Assembly: GCA_963738225.1 (NCBI GenBank)
Contig: CAVTVR010000007.1
Location: forward strand, 48,018-112,017
Length of the DNA: 64,000 nt
Direction of reading: 5' to 3'
Origin: an uncultured Verrucomicrobiae bacterium
Lineage (GTDB): Bacteria > Verrucomicrobiota > Verrucomicrobiia > Limisphaerales > UBA11358
The position numbers and the translations under genes were made by a program. Below, piece after piece: positions 12,223 to 57,367 of the stretch. Numbering within the stretch: position 1 is the stretch's first letter; every line of letters begins with the position of its first letter. The notes beneath the pieces are model-generated. The model ran no database searches. It was given only the letters and a program-made list of their open reading frames with translations, and had not been told where the DNA came from.

Positions 12223-12392
12223 GATTCAAATTGGGAGTTGTTTTTGAACGAAGCAAGTCAAAGTTTAAATGAATTTGCGCGTTCGAACCGGCAGATCAAT
12301 GATCATTTGTTCAATGGTCGAACTTGACCCGGGAGTTTGGGTGGTGTCATTATTGCGCCGATTCCAGAGCATAACCCAAACTAAATTGTTCC

Positions 12393-12989
12393 ATGAACGA
12401 AACCGCGACGACTCAACTCAAAGACACCACCGCCAACCCCGCGCCGCTCGGCCTGCTCGGATTCGGCATGACGACCGTGCTGCTGAACCTGCACAACGCG
12501 GGATTTTTTGAACTCAACAGCATGATCCTGGCGATGGGCCTCTGCTACGGCGGGATCGCGCAGGTCATCGCGGGCATCATGGAATGGAAGAAAGGCAACA
12601 CCTTCGCCGCCACGGCATTCGTTTCATACGGATTCTTCTGGCTTTCATTTGTGACCATGGTGTTGCTGCCCAAAATCATTTCCACCGTTGTCCCGGCCAA
12701 TGAAACGGCGGTGGCCACTTATCTCGCCATGTGGGGGCTTTTTACCGCCGCAATGTTCCTTGGCACTTTCCGCCTGAACCGTGCGCTGATGGTTGTTTTT
12801 GGCACGCTGACAATTTTGTTTTTCCTGCTTGCCCTTGGTGATTTCACCGGTGCCAGCGCGGCTTTCAAACACGCCACCGGCTACGAAGGCATCGTCTGCG
12901 GTTTGGCCGCGATTTACACCGGCCTCGCGCAAGTGTTGAATGAACTTTTTGGGAAAATCGTGCTGCCGCTCGGCGCGGTCAAAAAATAA
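12393..12989 (+). CDS. GPR1/FUN34/YaaH-family acetate(succinate) channel
   Basis: Signature [23 protein letters not shown] and six hydrophobic segments in 198 aa. Confidence 0.85.
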
Positions 12990-13003
12990 TTGCCGGCAAA
13001 GCC

Positions 13004-13336
13004 TCAACCGATGCCGAGCAACTCCACTTCAAAAATCAGCGTGCTGTTCGGTGGAATCGCGCCCGGATAACCATCGCGACCATAGGCGAGTTCCGGAGGA
13101 ATGATCAGCTTCACCTTGTCGCCAACTTTCATCCGCGCCACGCCGAGATCCCAGCCGGCAATGACTTCGCCCGCGCCGAGCTTGAAGCTGAACGGCTCAT
13201 CGCGATCCACCGAGCTGTCGAACTTTTTGCCGTCGGTGAACATGCCGGTGTAATGCACGGTCACGGTGTCGCCATTTTGTGGAGCTTTGCCGTTGCCGTC
13301 CGTGAGTTTCTCGATCTTCAATTCAGGTTTTGCCAT
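13004..13336 (-). CDS. FKBP-type peptidyl-prolyl cis-trans isomerase
   Basis: Trimmed to ATG 13336 ([11 protein letters not shown]...). FKBP core [39 protein letters not shown]...[12 protein letters not shown]. Confidence 0.88.
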
Positions 13337-13420
13337 GCCGGATTTTTGCCGCTGCCGCAACGGGCGTCAAACAAACCTTTTTATGTCGCGCGAAGGACGC
13401 GAAAACGGCGAAGGATCCGG

Positions 13421-13455
13421 AAATAAAAAAAGGCGCGCAGCCGGAACTGCGCGCC
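13421..13455 (-). terminator. rho-independent terminator downstream of gnd
   Basis: On the minus strand: GGCGCGCAG-ttccgg-CTGCGCGCC followed by TTTTTTATTT, about 75 nt after the gnd stop. Confidence 0.55.
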
Positions 13456-13529
13456 TGGAGCCATCGGCAGGGCAGGGCGGCGGTGCTGCGCCGCCGCCAT
13501 TCGGCTGACCAGCAGGTCAGCCCTACCAG

Positions 13530-14996
13530 TTACACGTTGTAAGTGCTGCTGGCGATGGTGCCGCCGCGGCCGGTCCAGTTGGTGTGGAAAAATTCGCCGC
13601 GCGGCTTGTCCACGCGCTCATAAGTGTGCGCGCCGAAATAATCGCGTTGCGCCTGAAGCAGGTTCGCCGGCAACACGGCAGAACGATATTGATCGAAGAA
13701 GTTCAACGCCGTGCTGAACGCCGGAGTGGGAATGCCTTTCTTCGCCGCCGTGGCCACGATGTTGCGCCAGCCTTTTTGCGAGCGCTTGATTTCGCCACGA
13801 AAATAATCGTCCAGCATCAAGTTCATCAGCTTCGGATTGTTGTCATACGCCGTCTTGATTTTGCCGAGGAAGCGCGAGCGGATGATGCAGCCGCCGCGCC
13901 ACATCAGCGCGATGCCGCCGTAATTCAAGTTCCAGCCGTATTCCTTGGCCGCCGCGCGCATGAGCATGTAACCCTGCGCGTAGCTGACAATTTTCGAGGC
14001 GTAAAGCGCGTCGCGGATGTCGCCGATGAACTGTTTTTTCTTTTCCGGATTCGCGGCGATGCTCGTGAGGGCGGGGCGCGGGCCTTTCAATTTCCTCGCC
14101 GCCTTCACGCGTTCGTCTTTCAACGCGGAAACGCAGCGCGAATAAACGGCTTCGGCCATCAGCGTGATCGGGATGCCGAGTTCCTGCGAATTTATGACCG
14201 TCCATTTGCCGGTGCCTTTCTGCCCGGCGGTGTCGAGAATCTTGTCCACCAGCGGCGAACCATCTGCATCCTTGTGCGCGAGAATGTCGCGGCTGATTTC
14301 AATGAGGTAGCTGTCCAGTTCGCCTGTGTTCCATTCGGCGAAAACCTGGTGCATCTCGTCGGCGCTCAGGCCGAGTCCGTTTTTCAAGATGTTATACGCT
14401 TCGCAAATCAACTGCATGTCGCCGTATTCGATGCCGTTGTGAACCATCTTCACGTAATGACCGGCGCCGGCTTCGCCGACCCAGTCGCAGCACGGCGTGC
14501 CGTCCTCCACCTTGGCGGCGACGGCCTGGAAAATATCCTTCACATGCGGCCATGCGGCGGGCGAACCGCCGGGCATGATGCTGGGACCGTGGCGCGCGCC
14601 TTCCTCGCCGCCGCTCACGCCGGTGCCGACGTAGAGCAGGCCCTTGCTCTCAACGTATTTCGTGCGGCGGTTCGTGTCCTCGAATAACGAGTTGCCGCCG
14701 TCAATGATGATGTCGCCCGGTTTCAGCGCGGGAATAAGCTGCTCGATGAAATCGTCCACCGGCTTGCCGGCCTTGACGAGCATCATCACGCGGCGCGGAG
14801 ACTTGAGCTTGGAAACCATTTCCTCAATCGAATGCGCGCCGAGGACTTTTGTTCCTTTCGCCTCGTTCGCGAGAAAATGATCCACCTTTTCGGTGGTGCG
14901 GTTGTAGGCGACGACGGTAAAACCGTGGTCGTTCATGTTCAAAATCAAATTCTGGCCCATGACGGCCAGGCCGATGAGTGCGATGTCAGCTTCCAT
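13530..14996 (-). CDS. gnd: 6-phosphogluconate dehydrogenase, decarboxylating
   Basis: 488 aa. NADP-binding N-terminus IGLAVMGQNLILNM and GHYVKMVHNGIEYGDMQLI. Full-length match to the decarboxylating 6PGDH pattern. Confidence 0.95.
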   Translation of the reverse strand: MEADIALIGLAVMGQNLILNMNDHGFTVVAYNRTTEKVDHFLANEAKGTKVLGAHSIEEMVSKLKSPRRVMMLVKAGKPVDDFIEQLIPALKPGDIIIDGGNSLFEDTNRRTKYVESKGLLYVGTGVSGGEEGARHGPSIMPGGSPAAWPHVKDIFQAVAAKVEDGTPCCDWVGEAGAGHYVKMVHNGIEYGDMQLICEAYNILKNGLGLSADEMHQVFAEWNTGELDSYLIEISRDILAHKDADGSPLVDKILDTAGQKGTGKWTVINSQELGIPITLMAEAVYSRCVSALKDERVKAARKLKGPRPALTSIAANPEKKKQFIGDIRDALYASKIVSYAQGYMLMRAAAKEYGWNLNYGGIALMWRGGCIIRSRFLGKIKTAYDNNPKLMNLMLDDYFRGEIKRSQKGWRNIVATAAKKGIPTPAFSTALNFFDQYRSAVLPANLLQAQRDYFGAHTYERVDKPRGEFFHTNWTGRGGTIASSTYNV

Positions 14997-17812: not shown

Positions 17813-17912
17813 TAGCCACGGAGTGGCGCACGATAATAGCCCACGGCGTCAGCCGTGGGAAGGCGTTGGCAAAACGATTCAAGTCCCGGCAGGGGCGAAA
17901 GAAAATTCATTC
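17813..17912. repeat. structured REP-like repeat, copy 1 (flanks the RAYT gene)
   Basis: TAGCCACGGAGTGGCG...AGCCCACGGcgtcagCCGTGGGAA...AACGATTCAAGtCCCGGcaGGGGCG. Contains several short stem-loops. About 80% identical to the copy at 18388-18488 in the same orientation. Confidence 0.75.
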
Positions 17913-32407: not shown

Positions 32408-33901
32408 CTACGGTCCGCCGTTGTGGCAGTCAATGCAGGACGGATTTTCGTCCAGATCGCCGGCGGGATGGATGAATTTCTGGCCGCCGGGTGTGAGTTT
32501 CTGCAACTCCGCGCCGCTGCCTTGCGCGAGAATGGTGTGGCAGGCATTGCAATCGTTGGCCTTGATGCTGCGCTTGCCGTCGTCAGTCTTGTGCCGGCCA
32601 TCGTGACAGCGGAAGCAGCCGGGCCAGATCATGTGGCCGATGTTGTCGGGATAAACGTTCCACTGCGCTTTCATTTCCGGGAAGAAGTTGTCGCGGTAAA
32701 TTTGCTGCAACGCGGAGATGGCGGGTTTGACGCGCGGCTCGTTGGGATAATGTTCGGCCATGAACGTCGCGATGCCGTTGGTGGCTTCGTTTTCGTTTTG
32801 GTATTTGCGGGTCAACGCCCAAACCGCGTTGGTTTTGACCCACGGCAGTGTGCGATCAATCTGCCCCAGTTCCATGGCAAGATTGACGGCGTTGTCCGGC
32901 GCGACATAACGATGGGATGGGCGGTTGTGGCAATCCATGCAATCCATTTTGCGGATTTCAAACTGGCTGATGTCGTTCGTGAATTTCGGATCGTGATAGA
33001 CGGTGACCACGCCTTGCTGATCGGTGATGCGCACCCAGGGGATTTTCTGCCGTTCGGCATCCGTGGCGATGTATTCCACGCTGTTGCCCACCACCATGTG
33101 CCAGTGGATGCCGCCCACGGGTCCATGCGTGGGATCCGAGCCGCCGATTTTGACGGACAAACGGATGGACCACGGCGTGTTGGTGGCGTCGCCTTGAAAA
33201 TAGGCGAAAGTGCGGTCGAGATTGCCGTAAAATTTTTGCGGCCAGTGACATTCCTCGCAGGTCTCGCGCGCGGGGCGCAGATTTTTGATCGGCGTCGGAA
33301 TCGGGCGCGGATATTTATTGAACAATACGGAGTAGACCTGATAGCTGCCCGAAAGTTTTGAGCGCACGAACCAGGTGGCGCCCGAACCGACATGACAGGC
33401 GGCACAGGCGACCCGCGCGTGCGGCCCGTGGTCGTGCGTGGTCAGTTCGGGTTTCATCACGCCGTGGCAGGTCTCGCCGCAAAATTGCACTGATTCGGTG
33501 AACTGAAAGGTATTATAGCTGCCGATCGCGGCGACCATGAGAAACACCACGGTGCCGGATAGAAACGCGGCCATGATGCGGCGGTCGCGCGGACGCGACA
33601 GATCAATTTGCATTGGCGCAACCCCAACCCAGACGGCCTGCCGGCTGCGACGGCGACGCTCGTGAAAAATGCCCAGCGCCGTCAGAAATAATCCGAAGGT
33701 TAAAAAGCCCGGCGCGATCATCCATTTCAAGATGCTGACGTAGGGATTTGAAAAATGGGCGAACAAGTCCAGCACGAACAACAGAAAGAACGAAAAGAAA
33801 CTGCCAATGACGATGACCAATCCCGTCAAACTTATCCAATTGCGCATCAGGGAGGGACGCGCCGGCGGTTGTTCGGAAGCTGCTTTGTTTTCTAAATTCA
33901 T
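32408..33901 (-). CDS. inner-membrane heptahaem c-type cytochrome (NapC/NirT-related, ImcH-like architecture)
   Basis: Three N-terminal TM segments, then seven CxxCH motifs: CGETCH, CAACH, CEECH, CMDCH, CFRCH, CNACH, CIDCH. Confidence 0.8.
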   Translation of the reverse strand: MNLENKAASEQPPARPSLMRNWISLTGLVIVIGSFFSFFLLFVLDLFAHFSNPYVSILKWMIAPGFLTFGLFLTALGIFHERRRRSRQAVWVGVAPMQIDLSRPRDRRIMAAFLSGTVVFLMVAAIGSYNTFQFTESVQFCGETCHGVMKPELTTHDHGPHARVACAACHVGSGATWFVRSKLSGSYQVYSVLFNKYPRPIPTPIKNLRPARETCEECHWPQKFYGNLDRTFAYFQGDATNTPWSIRLSVKIGGSDPTHGPVGGIHWHMVVGNSVEYIATDAERQKIPWVRITDQQGVVTVYHDPKFTNDISQFEIRKMDCMDCHNRPSHRYVAPDNAVNLAMELGQIDRTLPWVKTNAVWALTRKYQNENEATNGIATFMAEHYPNEPRVKPAISALQQIYRDNFFPEMKAQWNVYPDNIGHMIWPGCFRCHDGRHKTDDGKRSIKANDCNACHTILAQGSGAELQKLTPGGQKFIHPAGDLDENPSCIDCHNGGP

Positions 33902-34069
33902 AGTGACAACTGCAATGTTTCGTCTTGTGCTTTTGGAACGGGAGCATGGTCCGCGCTCGCATGAAGAATCTGACAGGGATGGCTTGTTCTGGCGCGTCCT
34001 CTATTGCCAAAGGCTAAACATTTCTTGTCTGCCAAATAACAAATTATGTCCTACGGATGGAAGCGAGAG

Positions 34070-35317
34070 TCAGGTCGCCCCGGCCACGGACGAGCCGTGC
34101 TGCGGCCCGGAATCACTGGAAGGCAGCCGTTCGGAGAGAAACAATTTCACCAGCACGGTCAGGATGATGAACGGCAGAATCAAAATGAAACCGCCGAGCA
34201 GCAAACCTTCGGAGCCCATGAAATCCAGATGGTAGCCCATCACGCCGCGCAGACTCTTGGAAAACATCTGGCCGCCCATGACCACGTTCCAGCGCATGGC
34301 CAGCACGCCGATGAGGACCATGAAGGAACTGCAGTAAATCATCCGCCGCCGGATTTGCTCCGGCACGCGCTTGCGGAGGAGTTGGAGCGAGCCGAGCAGC
34401 AAAAGCGGCGTCAGCGTGCCGACGGTGACCTGCGCCAGATTCATGGTGTAAAAAAGTTTTTCGCGCATCATGATGGCGATTACCGAATAGCCTTCCTCGG
34501 CGGCGTAGGAACGATGCAGCCAGTCCAATCCTTCGATCGTCCCGTCCACCACCAGCGCATAAAAAAGAAACATCGCCATCGTGTCTAGGCAGGCCATGTC
34601 CACGATTTTCCGCCGCGCCCATGTGAGGTTGACGTAGTTAAACACGCACAGCGCGATGCCCGAAACGACGGCAGACAGGATGAAAATAATTGGCATCAGC
34701 ACATTGCCCCACAAAGGATTTGCCTTGATGGAACCGAAGATGAAGCCGACATAGCCGTGCAGCAAAAACGCCGACGGAATGCCGATGATCGAAAGGATGC
34801 GGCCAAATTTCATGTCCAATCCCACAGCCGCCGGCGACACATCGTTCACGCCCAAAGTCAGCGCGCGATACAACATGCTGCGAAAACCTGTGGCCGTCTT
34901 CGACCATTCCACGAAGTCGCGGCGAAAATCAAACCATAGTTCCAACAGCAAAACCGCCATTAGATACCACGCATAAACAAAGCCGAAGCACGCCATCGGC
35001 GAAGTCAGATGCGGCGTCATCATGATCTCGTAGTTCCGTTCCGGATGGCCGAGGTGGCACAGCAATGGCAGCGGCGCGCACAGCAAAAACGCAAACGCCG
35101 TCAGCAGTGAAAAGCGATAAATGGGTTCCAGCGCCTTCACTTTGAACACGCGCACCAGCGACGCCATGATGAACGCGCCGGCCACCAATCCGGTGACATA
35201 GGGATAAACGACAATCAAAAAGCTCCACAGGGGATGGGCATGAGCTTCGTTGGGATAAACATATCCCTCGAACATCGGCTGCGCCTCGGCGACGAGATTG
35301 GCTACTTCATTTGTCAT
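34070..35317 (-). CDS. NrfD/PsrC-family polytopic quinone-interacting membrane subunit
   Basis: 415 aa, about 10 hydrophobic segments. The N-terminal region HPLWSFLIVVYPYVTGLVAGAF is typical of the NrfD family. Lies next to the FeS subunit. Confidence 0.83.
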   Translation of the reverse strand: MTNEVANLVAEAQPMFEGYVYPNEAHAHPLWSFLIVVYPYVTGLVAGAFIMASLVRVFKVKALEPIYRFSLLTAFAFLLCAPLPLLCHLGHPERNYEIMMTPHLTSPMACFGFVYAWYLMAVLLLELWFDFRRDFVEWSKTATGFRSMLYRALTLGVNDVSPAAVGLDMKFGRILSIIGIPSAFLLHGYVGFIFGSIKANPLWGNVLMPIIFILSAVVSGIALCVFNYVNLTWARRKIVDMACLDTMAMFLFYALVVDGTIEGLDWLHRSYAAEEGYSVIAIMMREKLFYTMNLAQVTVGTLTPLLLLGSLQLLRKRVPEQIRRRMIYCSSFMVLIGVLAMRWNVVMGGQMFSKSLRGVMGYHLDFMGSEGLLLGGFILILPFIILTVLVKLFLSERLPSSDSGPQHGSSVAGAT

Positions 35318-35320
35318 GGC

Positions 35321-36133
35321 TTATCTTACCTCCTTGTCCAAACCGGCGTAACTAACACTCGGCTCCGTGCCCAAATGCGGTTTCAGCACCTGGACGCGAT
35401 TGTTCTGCAGAAATTTCTGGAGCGGATCGTCATCCCCCGTCGGATTTTTCAAATCGCCAAACACTCGCGCCTCTGCCGGACAAATTTCCACGCACGCCGG
35501 TTTCAGTCCGCGCGTCGTGCGGTGATAACACAGCGTGCATTTCTCGGCGGTCTTGGTGACCGGACTCAGAAAGCGCGCGCCGTAGGGACATGCCTGGACG
35601 CAAAACGCGCAGCCAATGCAGTAATTTGGATCTACCAGCACGGCACCGTCGGGCGCTTTGAACGTCGCGCCCACGGGACAAACTTGCGTGCAAGGCGGTT
35701 TTTCGCACAAGTTGCAAAGTTTTGGAACGAAGAAGGAATGTTCGATCTGATCTTTCGGCACTTCAGGTTCGGGAAAACCGTGCATCCCGCCATTGGGGCA
35801 ATCCACGACAGTTTCGCCGCGCGTCTCGCCCGATCCCGGCTTGGGCTTTTTAATAATGTAACGCTCAACCCATGTGCGATAGTAAGGTCCGTCCGGCACG
35901 CCATTTTCCTTCTTACAGGCTTCCGCGCACAAACCACAACCGATGCACTTTGTGTCGTCAATGCAAATCAACCATTTGTGTTTGGTCGGATCGTAAGCGC
36001 GGGGGGCGGTGGTGGAAACCAAAACCTTTTGCACGGCGGCCTTGGCCGCGCGCGCGGCCGAAAGCGACAGCAATCCGGCGATGGCGCCGCCGACTTTGGT
36101 CAATGCGCTGCGACGATTAAATTGAGTTTTCAT
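35321..36133 (-). CDS. Tat-exported 4x[4Fe-4S] ferredoxin subunit (NrfC/PsrB/HybA-like)
   Basis: Twin-arginine leader MKTQFNRRSALTKVGG. Cys clusters CIGCGLC...C, CNLCEKPPC, CIGCAFC and CTLC. Confidence 0.87.
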   Translation of the reverse strand: MKTQFNRRSALTKVGGAIAGLLSLSAARAAKAAVQKVLVSTTAPRAYDPTKHKWLICIDDTKCIGCGLCAEACKKENGVPDGPYYRTWVERYIIKKPKPGSGETRGETVVDCPNGGMHGFPEPEVPKDQIEHSFFVPKLCNLCEKPPCTQVCPVGATFKAPDGAVLVDPNYCIGCAFCVQACPYGARFLSPVTKTAEKCTLCYHRTTRGLKPACVEICPAEARVFGDLKNPTGDDDPLQKFLQNNRVQVLKPHLGTEPSVSYAGLDKEVR

Positions 36134-36621
36134 GGCTTTTTAACAGGCGCTTTGGCGGACGTTTCCTTTGGTTCCTTCGTGGGTTCGTGCGGCGCATGAC
36201 ATTCCTTGCAGTTCTGGCCGTAATGATCCTTCACCACAATTTGCTTGAGCCACTTCGGACGGGAAATGTCCGCTTCGTGGCACCGGATGCAGTGGCTGCC
36301 CGTGGCCTTGACCGGCAGGATGTCTGGATTATTTGCATGATCCGAGCACACGCCGTGACAGCCTTCGCAGGAAAGCGTCTTGTGCGCGCCGGTCGCCAGC
36401 GTGTGCAGAATATCGGAGTGACATTCATCGCACGCCTTTTTGCCAGCGAACAGGGGATCGCGCGAGTTGGCAATCTCGCCCAATGCCGCCCCGCGATACC
36501 ATCCGTATTGCCGGAAAGAAGGCGGGGTCAAAAATGTCCGGGCGACCAGATAAGATCCCACGATGGCCGAGGCCAGGAGAATCAACCTTAAGATTTGCGG
36601 TGGCAGCTTGAAACGGCGCAT
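36130..36621 (-). CDS. membrane-anchored tetrahaem cytochrome c (NrfH/NapC/NirT-like)
   Basis: N-terminal TM anchor (ILRLILLASAIVGSYLV) and four CxxCH motifs (CDECH, CEGCH, CIRCH, CKECH). Its stop overlaps the start of the FeS gene (ATGA). Confidence 0.8.
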   Translation of the reverse strand: MRRFKLPPQILRLILLASAIVGSYLVARTFLTPPSFRQYGWYRGAALGEIANSRDPLFAGKKACDECHSDILHTLATGAHKTLSCEGCHGVCSDHANNPDILPVKATGSHCIRCHEADISRPKWLKQIVVKDHYGQNCKECHAPHEPTKEPKETSAKAPVKKP

Positions 36622-36685: not shown

Positions 36686-37030
36686 TCATTTTTTTAATCC
36701 GCGAACGTAGGCAATCAGCGCCTTGACATCGTCGTCCGAGAGCGGCGTGTCCGCGCCGGTCACGAACGCTTTCATCTTGGTTTTGCCGTCGGCGTCCTTG
36801 ATGCCTTCCTTTACCGCCTTGGCCATGTCTTCATCCTTCATATCCGCCTGCACCTTGGCGTCGGTGAAATCCTTGGCGCCGAGCTTCTGGCCTATCTTGG
36901 TGTCGGCCTTGCCGTCGGGACCGTGGCACTTGGCGCACAGGTTGTCATAGTTCTCTTTGCCAACGGCCGCCTTCGCAGACCAAGCCGCAGCGAGACCAAA
37001 CAGCGTGACTAACAGAATTATTTTTTTCAT
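36686..37030 (-). CDS. periplasmic monohaem class I cytochrome c (paralog 1)
   Basis: Signal peptide MKKIILLVTLFGLAAAWSAKA and a single CAKCH. Very similar to the paralog at 37461-37790. Confidence 0.8.
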   Translation of the reverse strand: MKKIILLVTLFGLAAAWSAKAAVGKENYDNLCAKCHGPDGKADTKIGQKLGAKDFTDAKVQADMKDEDMAKAVKEGIKDADGKTKMKAFVTGADTPLSDDDVKALIAYVRGLKK

Positions 37031-37460: not shown

Positions 37461-37790
37461 TTATTTCTTCAAACCACGAACATAGGCCACGAGAGCCTTC
37501 ACTTCATCATCGGACAAAGTGTCAAACGGCTTCATCAAAGTTTTGTCTTCCGGCGATTTCAAACCTTCCTTGATGGCCTTCGTGGCGGCGTCATCCTTCA
37601 TATCGGCCTGCACCTTGGCGTCGGTGAAATCCTTGCAGCCGAGTTTCTGGCCCATCTTGGTGTCGCCCTTGCCTTCGGCACCGTGGCATTTTTGGCACAG
37701 GTTATCCCAGTTTTCCTTGGCGTCGGCCGCCTTTGCAGACAAGGCTGCGGCGAGACCGAACAGCGTGACCAGCAGAATAATTTTTTTCAT
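37461..37790 (-). CDS. periplasmic monohaem class I cytochrome c (paralog 2)
   Basis: Trimmed to ATG 37790 (MKKIILLVTLFGLAAALSAKA). Single CQKCH. The C-terminus ...DDEVKALVAYVRGLKK parallels paralog 1. Confidence 0.8.
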   Translation of the reverse strand: MKKIILLVTLFGLAAALSAKAADAKENWDNLCQKCHGAEGKGDTKMGQKLGCKDFTDAKVQADMKDDAATKAIKEGLKSPEDKTLMKPFDTLSDDEVKALVAYVRGLKK

Positions 37791-37873
37791 CGTCGTATAT
37801 CGGTTAAGTTTTACGTTGCCGATGCAAAGCATCGCGTTCAAGCAGAGTGTCACTCACAATGGGAAATTCGACC

Positions 37874-38043: not shown

Positions 38044-38955
38044 TTAATTCCCGGAACCATTGTTCCTGCCTGGAACCAAAACCTCATTCGTGCTGCCGCG
38101 CCGGTAGCCTTGCAAATCCAGCGTGACGTGTGAGTAACCCAATTGTTTCAGCGTGGCGGCGACTTTGTCAGCCACGCCATCCGCCAGGAATTTTTGCAAT
38201 TCCGCCGGGCCGACCTCGATGCGGGCGAGCGCCATTGCGGATTGCGGATTGCGGATTGCGGATTGATCCGCGCCGCCAATCGCCAATCGCCAATCACCAT
38301 TCCGAAATTCATGGTGCCGGACGCGCACATCGTGAAAGCCAAGGTCTCGCAGCGCGTATTCCGCCTGCTCGATCATGCGCAGCTTGGCCGGAGTCACCGC
38401 CTCGCCGTAGGGCACGCGCGAACTCAAGCACGCCATCTGCGGCTTGTCCGCCGTCGGCAGGCCGAGTTGCGCGGACAGCTCGCGGATTTCCGCCTTGGTC
38501 AAACCGGCCTCCTTCAGCGGCGCGCGCACTTGAAACTCCGCCGCCGCCTGCGCGCCGGGCCGGAAATCACCAATGTCACTGGCGTTTTCACCGTAGGCGA
38601 TCACCGCGAAATTTTCCGCCTTTGCGAGCGGCGTCAATTCCTCGAACAACTCGTGCTTGCAGAAATAGCAGCGGTTCGCCGGGTTCGCCGTGTAATTTTC
38701 GTTGGCAAATTCCTTGGTCAAAATCACGCGGACGGGAAAGCCAAATTTTGCCGCGATGTCGAGCGCTTCCTGCAATTCGCGCCGCGGCAGGCTCGGTGAA
38801 TCGGCAATCGCCGCCAGCGCGCGGCTGCCCAGCGCGTCGTGCGCGACGCGCGCGAGAAACACCGAATCCACGCCGCCGGAATACGCGACGAGACAGGAGC
38901 CGTAGCTTTTCAGCAACGACCGCAATTTTTCAAGTTTGTTGTTCGCTTCGCTCAT
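38044..38955 (-). CDS. larE: ATP-dependent sacrificial sulfur transferase LarE (PP-loop)
   Basis: PP-loop VAYSGGVDS, then RCYFCKHELF and ACLSSRVPYG. Has an in-frame extra segment from the heptamer array (38234-38303). Confidence 0.87.
   Translation of the reverse strand: MSEANNKLEKLRSLLKSYGSCLVAYSGGVDSVFLARVAHDALGSRALAAIADSPSLPRRELQEALDIAAKFGFPVRVILTKEFANENYTANPANRCYFCKHELFEELTPLAKAENFAVIAYGENASDIGDFRPGAQAAAEFQVRAPLKEAGLTKAEIRELSAQLGLPTADKPQMACLSSRVPYGEAVTPAKLRMIEQAEYALRDLGFHDVRVRHHEFRNGDWRLAIGGADQSAIRNPQSAMALARIEVGPAELQKFLADGVADKVAATLKQLGYSHVTLDLQGYRRGSTNEVLVPGRNNGSGN
38234..38303. repeat. intragenic heptamer hairpin inside larE (ATTGCGG x4 / CCAATCG x3)
   Basis: Ten consecutive 7-nt units in one phase: ATTGCGG x4, ATTGATC, CGCGCCG (loop), CCAATCG x2, CCAATCA, CCATTCC. 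Encodes ...NGDWRLAIGGADQSAIRNPQSAM... Confidence 0.85.
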
Positions 38956-39014
38956 CTCTTAAATTCAGGTAGGGTTGGCGCGCTACGCCGACCGGACGCC
39001 GCAGCGCGGCATCC

Positions 39015-40352
39015 CTACCGTTTCTTGTTCTTTGCCGCCGCTGCAATTTCAAAAACCTGTCTCACCGGCACGCCGGCTTTGTCCGCCAGCTTTTTGGCCG
39101 ATTCAAATTCCGGCGCGGCCTGCACCACTTTACCACCAAGTTTGCCAATTTTCACGGTCACATTTCCTAATGAGGTTTTGACCTCGGTGAACTCACGGCG
39201 CAGCTTGCGGCGTTCGGCAACCGTTTTGCGCACGCCGAACGCGGTCGCCTCGCGCAAAATCAATTCGGCAAATTTGTCGGCTTCGGCTTCCGCGCACAAA
39301 ACCGTGAGCAGCACGCCGGGCCGGTTCTTTTTCATCTGAATCGGCGTGTGGAAAACGTCCAGCGCGCCCGCCGCCAGCGCGGTTTCGACAAAGGCGCCGA
39401 GAATTTCGCCGGAGCAATCGTCCAGATTGGTTTCCAGCACGGCGACTTTGTCTGACTCCCAATCCAAACCAGGCGCGACAACTTTGGACTTTGGACTTTG
39501 GACTTTGGACAAGCCGCCAAGCACCGCGCGCAGCACGTTTGGCCGCGTTTTATTTTCGCGCGTGCCAAGGCCAAAACCGATTTTTTCGGCGACCAAATTT
39601 TCCATCGGGCCGAAACTCTCGACAAATTCCGCCAGCAGCGCCGCACCCGTGGGCGTGACCAGTTCGTGAGGTTCGTCGCATTGCGAAACGGGAATTTTCC
39701 GCGCGCCAAGAATCGCCAGCGTGGCCGGCGCGGGCACGGGAAATTTCCCGTGCGCGCAATCAATCCAACCGGTGCCTTCCACCACCGGCGAGGCGAACAC
39801 GCGCGGCTTGCCGAGCAGTTCCAGCGCGATGGCCGCGCCCACAATGTCAACGATGGAGTCCACCGCGCCGACTTCGTGGAAGTGAACTTCCGCTGGCGGC
39901 AGGCCGTGGATTTTTCCCTCCGCTTCGGCAATGCGCTGGAAGACGGCGATGGATTTCTGCTTCACCCACGGCGAAAGCTGGCTGCGGGATATGAGATGTT
40001 TTATTTCTGCGAAATTCCGTTGCCCGTCGTGAGCGTGATGCTTGATGCTTGATGCGTGACTTTCGTGGCCATGTTCATGCGCGTGGCCGTGCTCGTGAAA
40101 ATGAATTCCGCACGTGCTTTCGTGAACATGATGTTCATGTCCATGATCGTGATCGTGCGCGAGGTGGACATCAAATTTCACGCCGGCGATGGTGGATTTT
40201 TGCTGGCGCGAAATGTGGAGATGATAGCCGTCGAGCTTGAGTTTTTTCAACTCGCGTTCGAGACTGGCGGCGTCCACGCCAAGATCCAGCAATGCGGCGA
40301 TGAACATGTCGCCCGCGATGCCGCTGATGAGATCGAGATAGAGAATTTTCAT
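39015..40352 (-). CDS. larC: nickel-pincer cofactor nickel insertase LarC
   Basis: Trimmed to ATG 40352 (MKILYLDLISGIAGDMFIAALLDLG). His-rich stretch HDHDHGHEHHVHE...HEHGHAHEHGHE. Full-length LarC/DUF111 pattern. Confidence 0.9.
   Translation of the reverse strand: MKILYLDLISGIAGDMFIAALLDLGVDAASLERELKKLKLDGYHLHISRQQKSTIAGVKFDVHLAHDHDHGHEHHVHESTCGIHFHEHGHAHEHGHESHASSIKHHAHDGQRNFAEIKHLISRSQLSPWVKQKSIAVFQRIAEAEGKIHGLPPAEVHFHEVGAVDSIVDIVGAAIALELLGKPRVFASPVVEGTGWIDCAHGKFPVPAPATLAILGARKIPVSQCDEPHELVTPTGAALLAEFVESFGPMENLVAEKIGFGLGTRENKTRPNVLRAVLGGLSKVQSPKSKVVAPGLDWESDKVAVLETNLDDCSGEILGAFVETALAAGALDVFHTPIQMKKNRPGVLLTVLCAEAEADKFAELILREATAFGVRKTVAERRKLRREFTEVKTSLGNVTVKIGKLGGKVVQAAPEFESAKKLADKAGVPVRQVFEIAAAAKNKKR
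39484..39511. repeat. tandem heptamers TTGGACT x4 inside larC
   Basis: TTGGACT x3 plus TTGGACA. On the coding (minus) strand this reads AGTCCAA repeats and encodes SKVQSPKSKV. Confidence 0.85.
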
Positions 40353-40367
40353 TTGAAATTCATTTTG

Positions 40368-40450
40368 CCACGGATGGACACAGATTCGCACAGATGGAAA
40401 AGATTGCAGCTTCGAGAATGAATCTGTGTTTCATCTGTGTGAATCTGTGG
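40368..40450. repeat. CCACGGATGGACACAGAT-type inverted-repeat element
   Basis: CCACGGATGGACACAGATTCGCACAGATGG ... ATCTGTGTTTCATCTGTGTGAATCTGTGG. Lies between larB and larC and overlaps the last larB codons. Confidence 0.8.
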
Positions 40451-41195
40451 CCAGGGAATTGATCTGACTCGCGGCGTAACCCGCGCCAAAGCCGTTGTCA
40501 ATGTTCACCACCGTCAAGCCGCTGGCGCAACTGTTCAGCATGGCGAGCAGCGCGGCGATGCCGCCAAAACTCGCGCCGTAGCCGATGCTCGTCGGCACGG
40601 CGATGACCGGCCTGGCCACCAGTCCGGCGAGCACGCTTGGCAGCGCGCCTTCCATGCCGGCGACGGCCACGATGACATTCGCGCTTTGCAACAACTCCAT
40701 CCGCGCCAGCATCCGGTGCAGCCCGGCCACGCCGATGTCGTGAATGCGCTCGACGCGGTTGCCCATGATTTCGGCGGTGACGGCGGCTTCCTCGGCCACC
40801 GGCAAATCGCTGGTGCCGGCGCAGACGACGGCGATGAAGCCGGCGCGCTTGGGCAACGGTTTTTGCTCGATGGTCACACAGCGGGCAAGGTCGTGATGGA
40901 TCGCGCGCGGGAATTTTTTGCGAAGCGCGCGGGCGTGTTCGGCGGTGACGCGGGTGACCAGCACCGGCTGGCCGAGCGCAAAAAGTTTGGCGGCGATTTT
41001 GACGATCTGATCCGGCGTTTTGCCCGCGCCAAAAATAACTTCGGGAAAGTTTTTCCGGAGCGCGCGGTGCGTGTCCACCTGGGCAAAGCCGAGGTCCGCC
41101 ACTGGCGCGGCTTGAAATGCCTGCAAAACTTTTTCCCGCGGGATTATTCCCGCGCGAAATTGTTCGAGCAATTGAGTGGCCTCGCCGGTTGTCAT
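40431..41195 (-). CDS. larB: nickel-pincer cofactor biosynthesis protein LarB (AIR carboxylase-like)
   Basis: Trimmed to ATG 41195 (MTTGEATQLLEQF...). Shows VVCAGTSDLPVAEEA and AVAGMEGALPSVLAGL motifs. Confidence 0.87.
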   Translation of the reverse strand: MTTGEATQLLEQFRAGIIPREKVLQAFQAAPVADLGFAQVDTHRALRKNFPEVIFGAGKTPDQIVKIAAKLFALGQPVLVTRVTAEHARALRKKFPRAIHHDLARCVTIEQKPLPKRAGFIAVVCAGTSDLPVAEEAAVTAEIMGNRVERIHDIGVAGLHRMLARMELLQSANVIVAVAGMEGALPSVLAGLVARPVIAVPTSIGYGASFGGIAALLAMLNSCASGLTVVNIDNGFGAGYAASQINSLATDSHR

Positions 41196-41325
41196 GGCGT
41201 GACAATGCCGCACGAAATGCCCGTTGTCACGCGGGAAAACCCAGGCCGTTTCCGTTTTCCACGACTGCGCGAACAACGACTCGCCGCTTGACGACCGTTG
41301 TGAATGCAGTTCAAACTGGTTCACC

Positions 41326-42651
41326 ATGAATCCATTATTCCCGAAGCGACATCGCTTGGTTTTGCTGACCGCCATTTTTGCCGCGTTGAACACGGCGAGT
41401 TTGTTCGCTGTTGAATTCGAGTCCAAGCCGGACGATCCCTATTTCACCAAGTTTGAGCCGGTGAAAGCGCCGGCGCCCGCCGGCTTGCTGCTCCAAACTG
41501 GCGACCGTCTTGCGATCATCGGCGATTCCATCACCGAGCAGAAAATGTATTCGCGCATCATCGAGACGTATCTCACGGTTTGCGTGCCGGAACTGAAAAT
41601 CACCGCGCGCCAGTTCGGCTGGAGCGGGGAGACCGCCGAAGGTTTTTTGCATCGCATGACGAATGATTGCCTGCGCTTCCAGCCGACCGTTGCCACGCTG
41701 TGCTACGGGATGAACGACCATCGTTACCGCGCCTACGACGAGCCGACCGGCCAGTGGTATAGCAATAATTACTCCGCGGTGGCGTCCACATTAAAAGATT
41801 CCGGCGCGCGCGTCGTGCTGGGTTCGCCGGGCTGCGTGGGCAAAATTCCGGGCTGGGTCGGCGACCAAAAAGCGTCCGTCGAAGATTTGAATTTAAGCCT
41901 CTGTCACTTTCGGAACATTGACATCGAAATCGCAGCGCTGGAAAAAATCAATTTTGCCGACGTGTTTTGGCCGATGTTCACCGCCGGTTTCACCGCGCAC
42001 CAAAAATATGGAGCGGACTATGCCGTGTCGGGCCATGACGGCGTGCATCCCGGCTGGGCCGGACATCTTATCATGGCTTACGCTTTTCTGAAGGCGATGG
42101 GACTCGACGGTGATCTTGGCACCTTTACCGTGAATCTCGGCGCGGGCACGGCCACGGCGAGTTCCGGCCACACGGTGGACAGTTTTACCAACAACACGCT
42201 GACCATCACCAGCCGCCGGTATCCATTCTGCGCCGCTGGTCCATTGGACAATGACAACTCTATCCGCTCCGGCATGACGTTCGTGCCGTTCAACGCCGAA
42301 TTGAACCGGCTTAAATTAATTGTCATCGGCGGCGCCGCGCAAAATTATGCCGTGACGTGGGGCGATCAAACGCATGATTATTCCGCCGCGCAACTCGCCG
42401 CCGGCGTGAATCTCGCGGAGGATTTTGCGATCAATCCCTTTTCTGCCGCGTTTGCCAAAGTGGACGCCGCCGTCGCCGCAAAACAAAATTACGAGACGCG
42501 GCAGATCAAGGAATTGTTTCACGGGCCGGAAGGCAAGGCCGACGCCGACGCCACGGCCGCCTTGACCGAAAAAGTCCGCCAGCCGCTGGCCGATGCCATC
42601 GCCACCGCGTTCGTGCCGGTGACGCATACGATCCTGATCCAGCCGAAGTGA
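41326..42651 (+). CDS. secreted SGNH/GDSL-family hydrolase
   Basis: Trimmed to ATG 41326 (MNPLFPKRHRLVLLTAIFAALNTASLFA). Block I IIGDSITEQ, later GMNDH and DGVHPG. Confidence 0.73.
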   Translation: MNPLFPKRHRLVLLTAIFAALNTASLFAVEFESKPDDPYFTKFEPVKAPAPAGLLLQTGDRLAIIGDSITEQKMYSRIIETYLTVCVPELKITARQFGWSGETAEGFLHRMTNDCLRFQPTVATLCYGMNDHRYRAYDEPTGQWYSNNYSAVASTLKDSGARVVLGSPGCVGKIPGWVGDQKASVEDLNLSLCHFRNIDIEIAALEKINFADVFWPMFTAGFTAHQKYGADYAVSGHDGVHPGWAGHLIMAYAFLKAMGLDGDLGTFTVNLGAGTATASSGHTVDSFTNNTLTITSRRYPFCAAGPLDNDNSIRSGMTFVPFNAELNRLKLIVIGGAAQNYAVTWGDQTHDYSAAQLAAGVNLAEDFAINPFSAAFAKVDAAVAAKQNYETRQIKELFHGPEGKADADATAALTEKVRQPLADAIATAFVPVTHTILIQPK

Positions 42652-56052: not shown

Positions 56053-57367
56053 TTATTTCTCCAAAATGATTTGTTTATCGTTCGCCTCGCGCACCATGCC
56101 GCTCATCGGCGCATGCAGAATCGCACCGAGCGCGTTCGGCGCAGGTTCGCCGATGATTTGTCCCGCGCTCACGCGGTCGCCAGTCTTTGACTTTTGAAAG
56201 GCACGGCGTGCCGGCGCTTTGCTTGAGCGGCAGGATGAGGCGGCTTGAGGAAATTTCCTGACGCACGAGCGGCGCGGGCAAATCGTAATCGAGGACGTGC
56301 AATTTTTTGGCGAGCGATTTGATCGGCACGCGGCGGCCATCCATCATCGCGTGCGGCTTGGGGTTCATCGGGCCGGTCCACTTGATTTGTTTGGCGCGCA
56401 TGACGGCCTTCGCATCGTCGCAGGCTTCTTTCGGAAATAATTCTTCCGGGCACGCATACAACGTGCAAAGTCCGCAAGAGCAGCACATCGCGGCCCATTG
56501 ATTGAAATAATCCGCGCCCGTGCCGGTGAACGCCAGCGTGCGCATGACTTGATGCGGCTCGACCGCGTAACCGAGCAGATAGCGCGGACAAAATTCCGTG
56601 CAATAGCGGCATTGGTCGCACGCGGATTTGCCAATGCCCGCCTGCGCTTTCGGCGGCTTAAGCTTGCGCTCGATGACGTGATGCGTGCGCGGCAAAATCA
56701 CCACGCCAGTGGAAGTTTTCGTGACCGGCGTGTCGAGATCGTCCGTGTGCGTGCCCATCATCAAACCGCCGATGACCAGCACCGGATCGTCCGTCGTGAG
56801 ACCGCCGGCGTATTCGATGCACTCGCGAAACGTCGTGCCGATGGGCACGCGCAGCGTCGCGGGCGATTTCACCGCGCCGGCAATCGTGAGCATTTTGTGC
56901 GTGAGCGGCTTGCCGTCGTGCGCGGCGGCAATGTTCACAAACGTCTCGACGTTGTTGACGACCACGCCAACGGCGATGGGAATGCCGCCGGGCGGAATCA
57001 ATTTGCCCGTGACGTTGTAAACCAAATCGTATTCGTCGCCGGCCGGATAATAATCGCCAAGCAACTGGACGCGGACATTCGTGCCTTTGCTCGCGGCCTG
57101 GACGGCTTCGACGGCGTGTTTCTTTTTGCCTTTGACGCCGATGACGCCTTCCTTCGCGCCGACAGCCTCGATGGCGAGTTGCATGCCGCGCACGAGTTCG
57201 GCGGCGCTTTCTTCCATCGTCACCGCGTCCTTGTGCAGGAGCGGTTCGCACTCCGCGCCGTTGGCGATGACGGTTTCGGCCTTGGCGTTGAGCTTGACGT
57301 GCGTCGGAAATCCGCCGCCGCCCGCGCCCACGACGCCGGCCTGCCTGACTTTTTCTGCTAAATTCAT
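56053..57367 (-). CDS. pduS: PduS/RnfC-like flavin- and 4Fe-4S-containing oxidoreductase, one frame break near the 3' end
   Basis: GAGGGGFPTHVKL, an SLBB-like middle region, and two ferredoxin motifs (CDQCRYCTEFCP, CCSCGLCTLYACP). After a shift near 56190 the C-terminus reads GDRVSAGQIIGEPAPNALGAILHAPMSGMVREANDKQIILEK. Confidence 0.85.

Follow-up and report, generated by a model that had tools for sequence, protein, structure and literature searches.

A stretch of 64,000 nucleotides (nt) from an uncultured Verrucomicrobiae bacterium of the order Limisphaerales (contig CAVTVR010000007.1, positions 48,018 to 112,017; this whole 64-kb stretch is referred to as the window) carries on its minus strand, from 37853 to 32408, a cluster of cytochrome, iron–sulfur (FeS) and NrfD-type genes. 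Protein cluster names likewise place the organism in the Limisphaerales. The locus raises the question of whether these genes encode one quinol-oxidising complex or several, and where the electrons go. In this work the gene content, motifs, family assignments and conserved synteny of the cluster are shown. We favour, with moderate confidence, the reading that the cluster specifies two independent inner-membrane menaquinol dehydrogenases with shared soluble acceptors, and that the likely end of the chain is an extracellular acceptor. A menaquinol:cytochrome c or extracellular-electron-transfer module, as suggested in a preliminary description of the same DNA, is the best functional reading.

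Architecture of the tetrahaem–FeS–NrfD module

The list of open reading frames (ORFs) agrees with the preliminary description on the coordinates of the four minus-strand genes that it named. Gene 1 (36130-36621, Tet_A) encodes a membrane-anchored tetrahaem cytochrome c of 163 amino acids (aa) with a CbcS-like architecture, gene 2 (35321-36133, FeS_A) a Tat-exported, ferredoxin-like subunit of 270 aa with four [4Fe-4S] clusters, of the NrfC/PsrB/DsrO/CbcT type, and gene 3 (34070-35317, NrfD_A) an NrfD-type integral membrane subunit of 415 aa, which provides the putative quinol site of the trio. Gene 4 (32408-33901) encodes an ImcH-family heptahaem inner-membrane quinol dehydrogenase of 497 aa. 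Genes 1 and 2 overlap in an ATGA, the start of gene 2 lying within the stop codon of gene 1, and 3 nt separate gene 2 from gene 3, just 5' of which is an AGGAGG. The layout, reported as tightly packed, is so for genes 1-3 but not for gene 4 (imcH), which lies 168 nt beyond gene 3. A scan with Rfam gave no match within the cluster, and tblastn detected no remnants of cluster genes when run with the 168-nt gap, the 430-nt gap between the two upstream cytochrome genes or the DNA that lies upstream of the second cytochrome. No further ORF with at least two haem motifs was found beyond the cluster in the whole window.

The product of gene 1 has one N-terminal hydrophobic helix (~9-31) and CXXCH motifs at residues 64, 85, 111 and 138, as expected for the anchored protein with four CxxCH motifs that had been described, but the NrfH-type quinol site attributed to it was not supported. 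Its Pfam matches are all sub-threshold, including NapC/NirT (PF03264; 18 bits versus a cut-off of 24.1). The CXXCHxM motif of the NrfH-type high-spin haem-1 site was not found in the protein, of which the first motif reads CDECHSD, and a profile of the tetrahaem family searched against the PDB did not retrieve NrfH. Eight His residues are invariant in 25 homologues, implying that all four haems would be bis-His ligated. Given the sub-threshold NapC/NirT score, the missing CXXCHxM, the bis-His haems and the profile search, an NrfH/NapC-type quinol site in gene 1 was rejected. The tetrahaem is best read from these features as a putative electron-output subunit, leaving two predicted quinol sites in the cluster rather than the three candidate quinol-interacting units counted previously. 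An AlphaFold2 model of the protein, with a predicted local distance difference test score (pLDDT) of 49, was too poor for an axial-ligand check or a fold search. The search for homologues gave 662 proteins, which, where named, are nearly all labelled 'hypothetical protein', with one cbb3-oxidase label.

Gene 2 was confirmed as the twin-arginine, four-cluster ferredoxin it had been taken for, with an RRSAL twin-arginine motif at the start of the protein and four Cys motifs that account for its four [4Fe-4S] clusters. The protein matches Pfam Fer4_11 (1.1e-25), and its best solved relative is PsrB (2vpw_B, 8.4e-41). Its scores against the NCBIfam models of TtrB (186.5 bits versus a cut-off of 416), DsrO (170.4 versus 200), NrfC (143.3 versus 377.6) and QrcC (81 versus 400) all stay below the curated cut-offs. 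The NrfD-type assignment of gene 3 was likewise borne out, as the protein matches Pfam NrfD (PF03916; 1.4e-36) with 127 bits, far above the cut-off of 25.8, and its predicted fold resembles those of known family members. NrfD_A has ~9 hydrophobic segments and no cofactor motifs, and its AlphaFold2 model (pLDDT 70; predicted template-modelling score 0.72) shows ~9-10 helices. The closest fold is ActC of alternative complex III (ACIII; E ~7e-7, template-modelling score ~0.6), followed by ActF and PsrC, with only 15-18% sequence identity between NrfD_A and ActC. PDB sequence searches with NrfD_A returned no match, whether the query was the single sequence or a profile, and the NCBIfam scores are low for NrfD (46.6 bits versus 347.6), DsrP (23.5 versus 350), TtrC (22.5 versus 314) and HmcC (21.2 versus 550). 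Judged by sequence and family models, NrfD_A is a clear but divergent member of the NrfD/PsrC superfamily that falls outside every curated clade.

Membership of the Nrf, Dsr, Ttr, Hmc and Qrc systems was rejected, because the subunits all score below the curated equivalog values. ACIII membership was rejected as well, since, of ActB, only the FeS part aligns with the 270-aa FeS subunit, which is accompanied by one NrfD protein and a tetrahaem. The earlier exclusion of ACIII, Nrf, Qrc and Hmc is thus upheld, with no NCBIfam equivalog cut-off reached and no large ActB. The cluster resembles ACIII in the predicted fold of NrfD_A, nearest to ActC, and in combining NrfD, FeS protein, membrane-anchored multihaem cytochrome c and monohaem cytochrome c as a quinol:cytochrome c oxidoreductase. 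However, the cluster lacks the large ActB with its molybdopterin-like domain, the second NrfD protein (ActF) and ActD, its anchored cytochrome is a tetrahaem instead of the pentahaem ActA, and its monohaem cytochrome c has no lipobox Cys.

The statement that the genes cannot be assigned to any named complex did not survive for genes 1-3, which match the order and composition of Cbc4 (CbcSTU, GSU0068-0070) of Geobacter. Cbc4 is a putative quinol:cytochrome c oxidoreductase, poorly characterised and not yet purified as a complex, of which the physiological role is not established. CbcS is a protein of 160 aa with an anchor (1-29), a linker (30-58) and four bis-His low-spin haems, CbcT carries four [4Fe-4S] clusters and CbcU is the membrane subunit. 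Compared by published description, genes 1-3 follow the order and composition of GSU0068-0070, and the tetrahaem is built as CbcS is, having 163 aa, a helix at ~9-31, eight invariant His and the first of its haem motifs at residue 64. Genes 1-3 therefore reproduce the Cbc4/CbcSTU architecture; the likeness is one of order and composition, set by description and not by sequence orthology. A match of all four genes to a characterised complex was accordingly found in part, as three of the genes correspond to Cbc4 but Cbc4 itself is barely characterised and the correspondence is set by description. Unlike Cbc4, the trio of the window type has an invariant fourth member, a monohaem cytochrome c gene, and the module is linked to imcH in the window, whereas the corresponding Geobacter loci are far apart. 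No Geobacter protein occurs among the 120 listed of the 662 tetrahaem homologues; the homologue searches gave, among the matches listed, only Verrucomicrobiota relatives with at least 66% identity, and no named distant relatives.

A further comparison is offered by SirCD, the FeS/NrfD pair of Shewanella, which oxidises quinol, feeds periplasmic cytochromes and can replace CymA. SirCD and the E. coli-type NrfBCD share with genes 2 and 3 the arrangement of a periplasmic FeS protein and an NrfD membrane subunit that pass electrons from quinol to periplasmic c-type cytochromes. The window proteins differ in scoring far below the NrfC and NrfD equivalog cut-offs and in having no sulfite or nitrite reductase gene near the cluster, and their dedicated cytochrome is a membrane-anchored tetrahaem, whereas NrfB is a soluble pentahaem. 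We tentatively entertain, as a possible but doubtful extension, that the invariant unit of monohaem cytochrome c, tetrahaem, FeS protein and ActC-like NrfD constitutes a distinct minimal quinol:cytochrome c oxidoreductase. It would be a stripped-down counterpart of ACIII, abundant in peat and bog Verrucomicrobiota, standing beside ImcH as the missing inner-membrane entry to an outer-membrane conduit and possibly translocating protons via NrfD.

The ImcH homologue and the monohaem cytochromes

ImcH is defined in the literature by three N-terminal helices, one CXXXCH and six CXXCH motifs, a NapC/NirT-like region and conserved haem-1 residues, and the product of gene 4 has all four features. Its hydrophobic segments lie at ~28-46, 55-79 and 109-127, compared with 13-35, 45-67 and 100-122 in GSU3259, the ImcH of Geobacter. 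Seven haem motifs are present, as had been noted, but not all are CxxCH: the first, CGETCH, is a CX3CH and the other six are CXXCH, a combination that is the signature of Geobacter ImcH. The motifs are found at residues 141, 166, 215, 321, 429, 451 and 489, and those of GSU3259 at 132, 156, 205, 311, 428, 448 and 486 (Zhong and Shi, supplementary table). The resulting spacings (25/49/106/108/22/38 versus 24/49/106/117/20/38) differ mainly by a deletion of ~9 residues between haems 4 and 5 of gene 4, and relative to the Opitutus terrae homologue Oter_2584 the haem motifs keep a constant offset of 21-22 residues. The NapC/NirT region was detected by Pfam PF03264 at residues 109-197 (2.3e-12, 47.4 bits versus a cut-off of 24.1). 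A search for the ImcH family gave 738 clusters (50% identity) at E <= 1e-30, from which 31 diverse members with 33-51% identity were drawn for an alignment. Every Cys and His of the haem motifs is invariant in these 31 sequences, and the family profile matched NrfH (2j7a_C) in the PDB at 1.6e-11. Furthermore, the key residues published for GSU3259 round haem 1 (E127, H137, K173, Q179 and Y188) correspond, when mapped by a constant offset of +9, to E136, H146, K182, Q188 and Y197 of gene 4.

On these sequence grounds gene 4 is an ImcH-family quinol dehydrogenase, and we infer its identity to GSU3259 from the published positions. The helices, the CX3CH and six CXXCH motifs, their spacing, the NapC/NirT score and the key residues all agree with the ImcH-like character first proposed, and the possibility that the heptahaem protein might lack ImcH-type homology is countered by the spacing, residues and NapC/NirT region that match by offset or by profile. 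Like GSU3259, gene 4 encodes a protein of ~500 aa with three N-terminal helices, a CX3CH followed by six CXXCH at near-equal spacing, a quinol region of the NapC/NirT/NrfH type, and Glu, Lys, Gln and Tyr conserved round haem 1. It differs in context, as Geobacter imcH is monocistronic and the imcH of the window follows a cytochrome–FeS–NrfD operon and monohaem genes, and in the periplasm it is likely to be partnered by a His/Met monohaem cytochrome c and not by a member of the trihaem PpcA family. In Geobacter, ImcH is needed for respiring extracellular acceptors above about -0.1 V; the enzyme works electroneutrally and has been seen to reduce periplasmic cytochromes in vitro.

Both of the monohaem cytochromes said to lie upstream are present on the minus strand, each as a gene for a predicted periplasmic class I cytochrome c. 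Copy 1 (36686-37030; Pfam Cytochrom_C, 1.6e-11) lies 64 nt upstream of the tetrahaem gene and shares 58% identity with the cytochrome at the equivalent position in a related locus, L001. Copy 2, listed at 37461-37853 (Cytochrom_C, 5e-11; Cytochrome_CBB3, 5e-10), has one CQKCH motif and a signal-peptide-like N-terminus, and its true start is most likely at 37790 (MKKIILLV...), inside the listed ORF. The two copies are paralogues with 74% identity, and the gene is thus duplicated in tandem with a 430-nt spacer; relatives carry one or two copies at the same position. Among 138 unique relatives, conservation reaches at least 90% for the CxxCHG motif and for a Met-Lys downstream of it, which points to His/Met ligation. 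Cytochromes with such ligation are usually of high potential.

Gene neighbourhoods in related genomes

The ImcH alignment was scanned against species-level genomes, giving at least 596 imcH loci, of which the best 80 were examined and annotated by phmmer and by haem-motif counts; neighbourhood counts were taken on the 63 with at least 5 kb of upstream DNA. These 80 loci belong to Verrucomicrobiota, Acidobacteriota, Ignavibacteriota, Bacteroidota and others, and none among them is from Geobacter. Another cytochrome with at least four haems lies within 9 kb of imcH in 58/63 loci, and a CbcL-like cytochrome, with many c haems and, at the C-terminus, a membrane domain, is near it in 40/63. A monohaem cytochrome c gene directly upstream of imcH (18/63) is confined to loci of the Verrucomicrobiota type, and a gene for a porin-like protein of ~720 aa is found near imcH in 13/63. 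An NrfD module is near imcH in only 7/80 loci, indicating that ImcH usually works without one.

A reverse scan with NrfD_A against metagenome contigs recovered the order monohaem cytochrome c, tetrahaem, FeS protein and NrfD in 50/50 related contigs, counted where the upstream DNA extends for at least 1.9 kb. Downstream DNA of at least 6.5 kb is available in 25 contigs, and in 22 of them imcH lies downstream of the trio. A second, non-orthologous cytochrome–FeS–NrfD module, often together with another monohaem gene, is placed between NrfD_A and imcH in 17 of these 25; the NrfD protein of this second module scores above the DsrP equivalog cut-off. The exact order of the window (two monohaem genes, trio, imcH) recurs in three loci, L087, L123 and L138, in which large cytochromes, an MtrA/DmsE-like cytochrome and a porin-like gene lie directly upstream of the cluster. 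L086 contains the full set, including a DsrOP-like module and two CbcL-like genes, and many relatives have the MtrA-like cytochrome, the porin and cytochromes of 9-19 haems contiguous with the cluster. The MtrA/DmsE-like cytochrome of relatives, of 286 aa, matches the DmsE and GSU2203 decahaem families at ~1e-48, below the cut-offs. The ~720-aa porin-like protein has no Pfam match and no hydrophobic helices; it displays ~20 beta-like segments of amphipathic character and, at the C-terminus, a conserved LQYRF. No porin gene adjoins the cluster in L089 and L090.

Directly upstream of the cytochrome cluster in the window (38044-41426, minus strand) are genes encoding LarC (Ni_insertion, 8e-139), a LarB-like protein with an AIR carboxylase domain and a PP-loop LarE-like protein (weak NAD_synthase match), which from these domains look like a nickel-pincer cofactor set. 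These Lar-like genes occupy the position that holds the porin-cytochrome genes in the relatives with the same gene order.

The related loci provided several further observations. An 11-haem cytochrome of ~720 aa is usually encoded after imcH in Verrucomicrobiota, but before it in Acidobacteriota (L006-L015, L086 and metagenome loci). The copy in L086 has a cytochrome b561-type membrane domain and is hence CbcL-like, so ImcH and CbcL homologues are commonly adjacent outside Geobacter. An NrfD protein of L086 (11990-13243) passes the NCBIfam DsrP equivalog (423 versus 350 bits) with no adjacent dsrMK, and is paired with a four-haem cytochrome and a DsrO-like FeS protein (neighbours 10394-13743). 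A protein of ~150 aa with no family match follows the DsrP-like NrfD in L086, L089 and L090. In L089 (11976-13709), and also in L090, the NrfD protein of the second module (match 54-246) continues into a cyclic-nucleotide-binding domain (300-383, 7.7e-20), which by its match positions is apparently inserted within the membrane protein, and in L087 a stand-alone cyclic-nucleotide-binding protein is encoded directly after imcH. These cyclic-nucleotide-binding parts may reflect ligand-regulated quinol oxidation or a transcription factor. Three loci (L009, L013 and L017) come from metagenome-assembled genomes labelled Bifidobacterium or Bifidobacteriaceae, with verrucomicrobial-type gene content (monohaem cytochrome c, ImcH and multihaem genes) and 53-65% identity to the window protein; their labels or binning are probably wrong. 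Elsewhere in the window, an Acido-Lenti-1 small RNA (Rfam RF01687) was detected at 17814-17859 on the minus strand over the full model (51.9 bits versus a gathering score of 37). An RnfC-like protein (Complex1_51K, SLBB and Fer4_17) is encoded at 56075-57367, also on the minus strand, and its domains suggest an Rnf-type ferredoxin:NAD oxidoreductase locus near this position.

Proposed electron flow and its meaning for wetland Verrucomicrobiota

Combined with the family assignments, these neighbourhoods allow a path of electrons to be proposed. The first route would run through the Cbc4/CbcSTU-like module, which resembles an ACIII core. Quinol would be oxidised at a periplasm-facing site of the NrfD-type subunit, from where electrons would pass to the four [4Fe-4S] clusters of the Tat-exported subunit, then to the anchored bis-His tetrahaem and finally to the His/Met monohaem cytochrome c. 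Precedents for this route are SirCD, which replaces CymA, and the flow proposed for Cbc4, and it is supported by the model of NrfD_A, nearest to ActC, itself a subunit of a quinol:cytochrome c oxidoreductase. In the second route, the heptahaem ImcH would oxidise quinol at an NrfH-like site by its first (CX3CH) haem and deliver the electrons, by way of its chain of haems, into the periplasmic cytochrome pool that the first route also feeds. From this pool, electrons would probably enter a conduit in the outer membrane and end up on Fe(III) or on organic matter, humic or particulate. An extracellular acceptor is considered most likely because close relatives join the same genes to an MtrA/DmsE-like cytochrome, the ~720-aa porin-like protein, and large multihaem and CbcL-like cytochromes, and the conduit as a destination also rests on published proposals for Verrucomicrobia. 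Two or more entry points would probably match different acceptor potentials or energy yields, as in Geobacter, where ImcH, CbcL and CbcBA serve as several entry points for acceptors of differing potential and energy yield.

A number of points weigh against this proposal. The 64-kb window contains no porin-like gene and no further multihaem gene, and the outer-membrane part is consequently putative for the source genome. Within the cluster, given the 168-nt gap, co-transcription of imcH with the trio is no more than possible, and promoter and terminator scans across the cluster gave nothing above shuffled expectation. As for the first route, orthology of genes 1-3 to Cbc4 would rest on the architecture as described and not on sequence, papers differ on whether CbcU is a 'b-type cytochrome' or an 'integral membrane subunit', and deletion of cbcS in Geobacter caused no Fe(III) or Mn(IV) reduction phenotype. 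As for the second, Geobacter ImcH showed no interaction with the monohaem PccH in vitro. Partners, acceptor, energetics and direction of flow are all inferred here, and sequence does not reveal the direction. Moreover, a carrier with the predicted His/Met ligation would fit a terminal oxidase equally well as an outer-membrane conduit.

This last point leads to an aerobic or microaerobic branch, in which the operon for monohaem c, tetrahaem, FeS and NrfD, either alone or together with ImcH, would act as a small stand-in for complex III and pass electrons from menaquinol through a high-potential His/Met cytochrome c to a cbb3/caa3-type oxidase. We regard such a branch as rather unlikely. It would agree with the class I monohaem cytochromes, which match the Cytochrome_CBB3/CcoP-type domain and keep the axial Met, with the ActC-like model of NrfD_A, with the constant presence of the monohaem gene in the module (50/50), like ActE in ACIII, and with the absence of an outer-membrane conduit from the window and of a porin beside the cluster in L089 and L090. 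However, no haem-copper oxidase gene adjoins the cluster in the annotated related loci, many relatives join it to the MtrA-like cytochrome, the porin and cytochromes of 9-19 haems, and Geobacter ImcH is linked experimentally to extracellular acceptors. The oxidase-feeding and extracellular roles are not mutually exclusive and can coexist. The same carrier, of a high potential that fits an oxidative pathway, could also be read in reverse, as the inward shuttle for electrons taken up from Fe(II) or reduced humics, with ImcH and/or the NrfD module reducing quinone as proposed for mtoA-mtoB-mtoD-cymA of Sideroxydans. The order MtrA-like cytochrome, porin, monohaem cytochrome c and NapC/NirT-family ImcH in relatives is collinear with that mto cluster, which comprises a decahaem, a porin, the monohaem MtoD and CymA, and NrfD complexes such as Qrc act as quinone reductases. 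We judge reverse operation improbable all the same, given that the ImcH homologues found by a 2018 survey all came from Fe(III) reducers and none from Fe(II) oxidisers, that the organisms have the look of saccharolytic heterotrophs (GH2, GH36, UxuA-like and FGGY kinase genes in the window), and that in anoxic peat and bog habitats acceptors are scarce rather than donors.

Whether the genes form one enzyme is judged here from the variable linkage of imcH. An obligate four-subunit complex with ImcH as a structural subunit of the tetrahaem–FeS–NrfD enzyme, as the preliminary description implied, could draw on the common strand and close spacing, on the position of imcH directly after NrfD_A in the window, L087, L123 and L138, and on its downstream position in 22 of the 25 related contigs. 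Most imcH loci nevertheless have no NrfD gene (present in 7/80), Geobacter imcH is monocistronic and functional alone, and a whole second cytochrome–FeS–NrfD module is interposed between NrfD_A and imcH in 17 of the 25 contigs. In addition, imcH lies upstream of the trio module in L162, and an orthologous ImcH with 67% identity to gene 4 is paired with a non-orthologous NrfD module in L001. Because the linkage varies in this way, a single obligate complex is very unlikely. The trio might instead be a quinol dehydrogenase that, after the manner of NrfBCD, MccCD/SirCD, TtrBC and PsrBC, serves a soluble periplasmic reductase of nitrite, sulfite, tetrathionate or polysulfide. The FeS subunit does match TtrB, DsrO, NrfC and PsrB best, and some homologues are labelled 'tetrathionate reductase subunit B' by the Joint Genome Institute (JGI), but the TtrB, DsrO and NrfC matches stay under the curated cut-offs, and no molybdopterin subunit, NrfA or MccA gene was found in the window or in the related loci examined. 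With no catalytic subunit found, we consider such a reductase system extremely improbable.

Two menaquinol dehydrogenases that would feed an extracellular acceptor by way of shared monohaem cytochromes are also in keeping with earlier literature on the phylum. The preliminary description placed such a module in a phylum not known for that, which is contradicted by published work: papers of 2014 and 2018 had noted ImcH homologues in Verrucomicrobia, a verrucomicrobial porin–multihaem cytochrome system was proposed in 2017 (He et al.), and a Limisphaerales cluster, 'EET4', was reported to be transcribed in peat (2026 preprint). The present cluster shares with these systems the phylum and order and the bog and peat habitats, and in relatives its genes directly adjoin the MtrA-like cytochrome and the ~720-aa porin-like protein. 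It differs in that those papers describe outer-membrane and extracellular parts, their main texts being silent on NrfD, NapC/ImcH and iron–sulfur subunits, and in that the window itself has no porin and no large cytochromes. A literature search found no description of a combination of ImcH, dedicated monohaem cytochromes and modules of the Cbc4-like or DsrOP-like kind, and the cluster is best read as a new combination built from known parts.

The cluster is probably the inner-membrane end of an extracellular respiration pathway that has already been proposed, and would supply the inner-membrane half of what was put forward from its outer-membrane half. Published work leaves open how electrons exit the quinone pool, for which an ImcH homologue together with one or two NrfD-type modules and monohaem cytochromes would be a concrete answer. 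The little-studied Cbc4-type architecture recurs here outside Geobacter with a fixed monohaem partner, offering tractable proteins for biochemistry. Peat, bogs and wetland soils harbour abundant Limisphaerales and related Verrucomicrobiota, and the respiration of humic or particulate organic matter there is thought to divert carbon from methane. The genes of the cluster may be used as markers in metagenome and metatranscriptome surveys.

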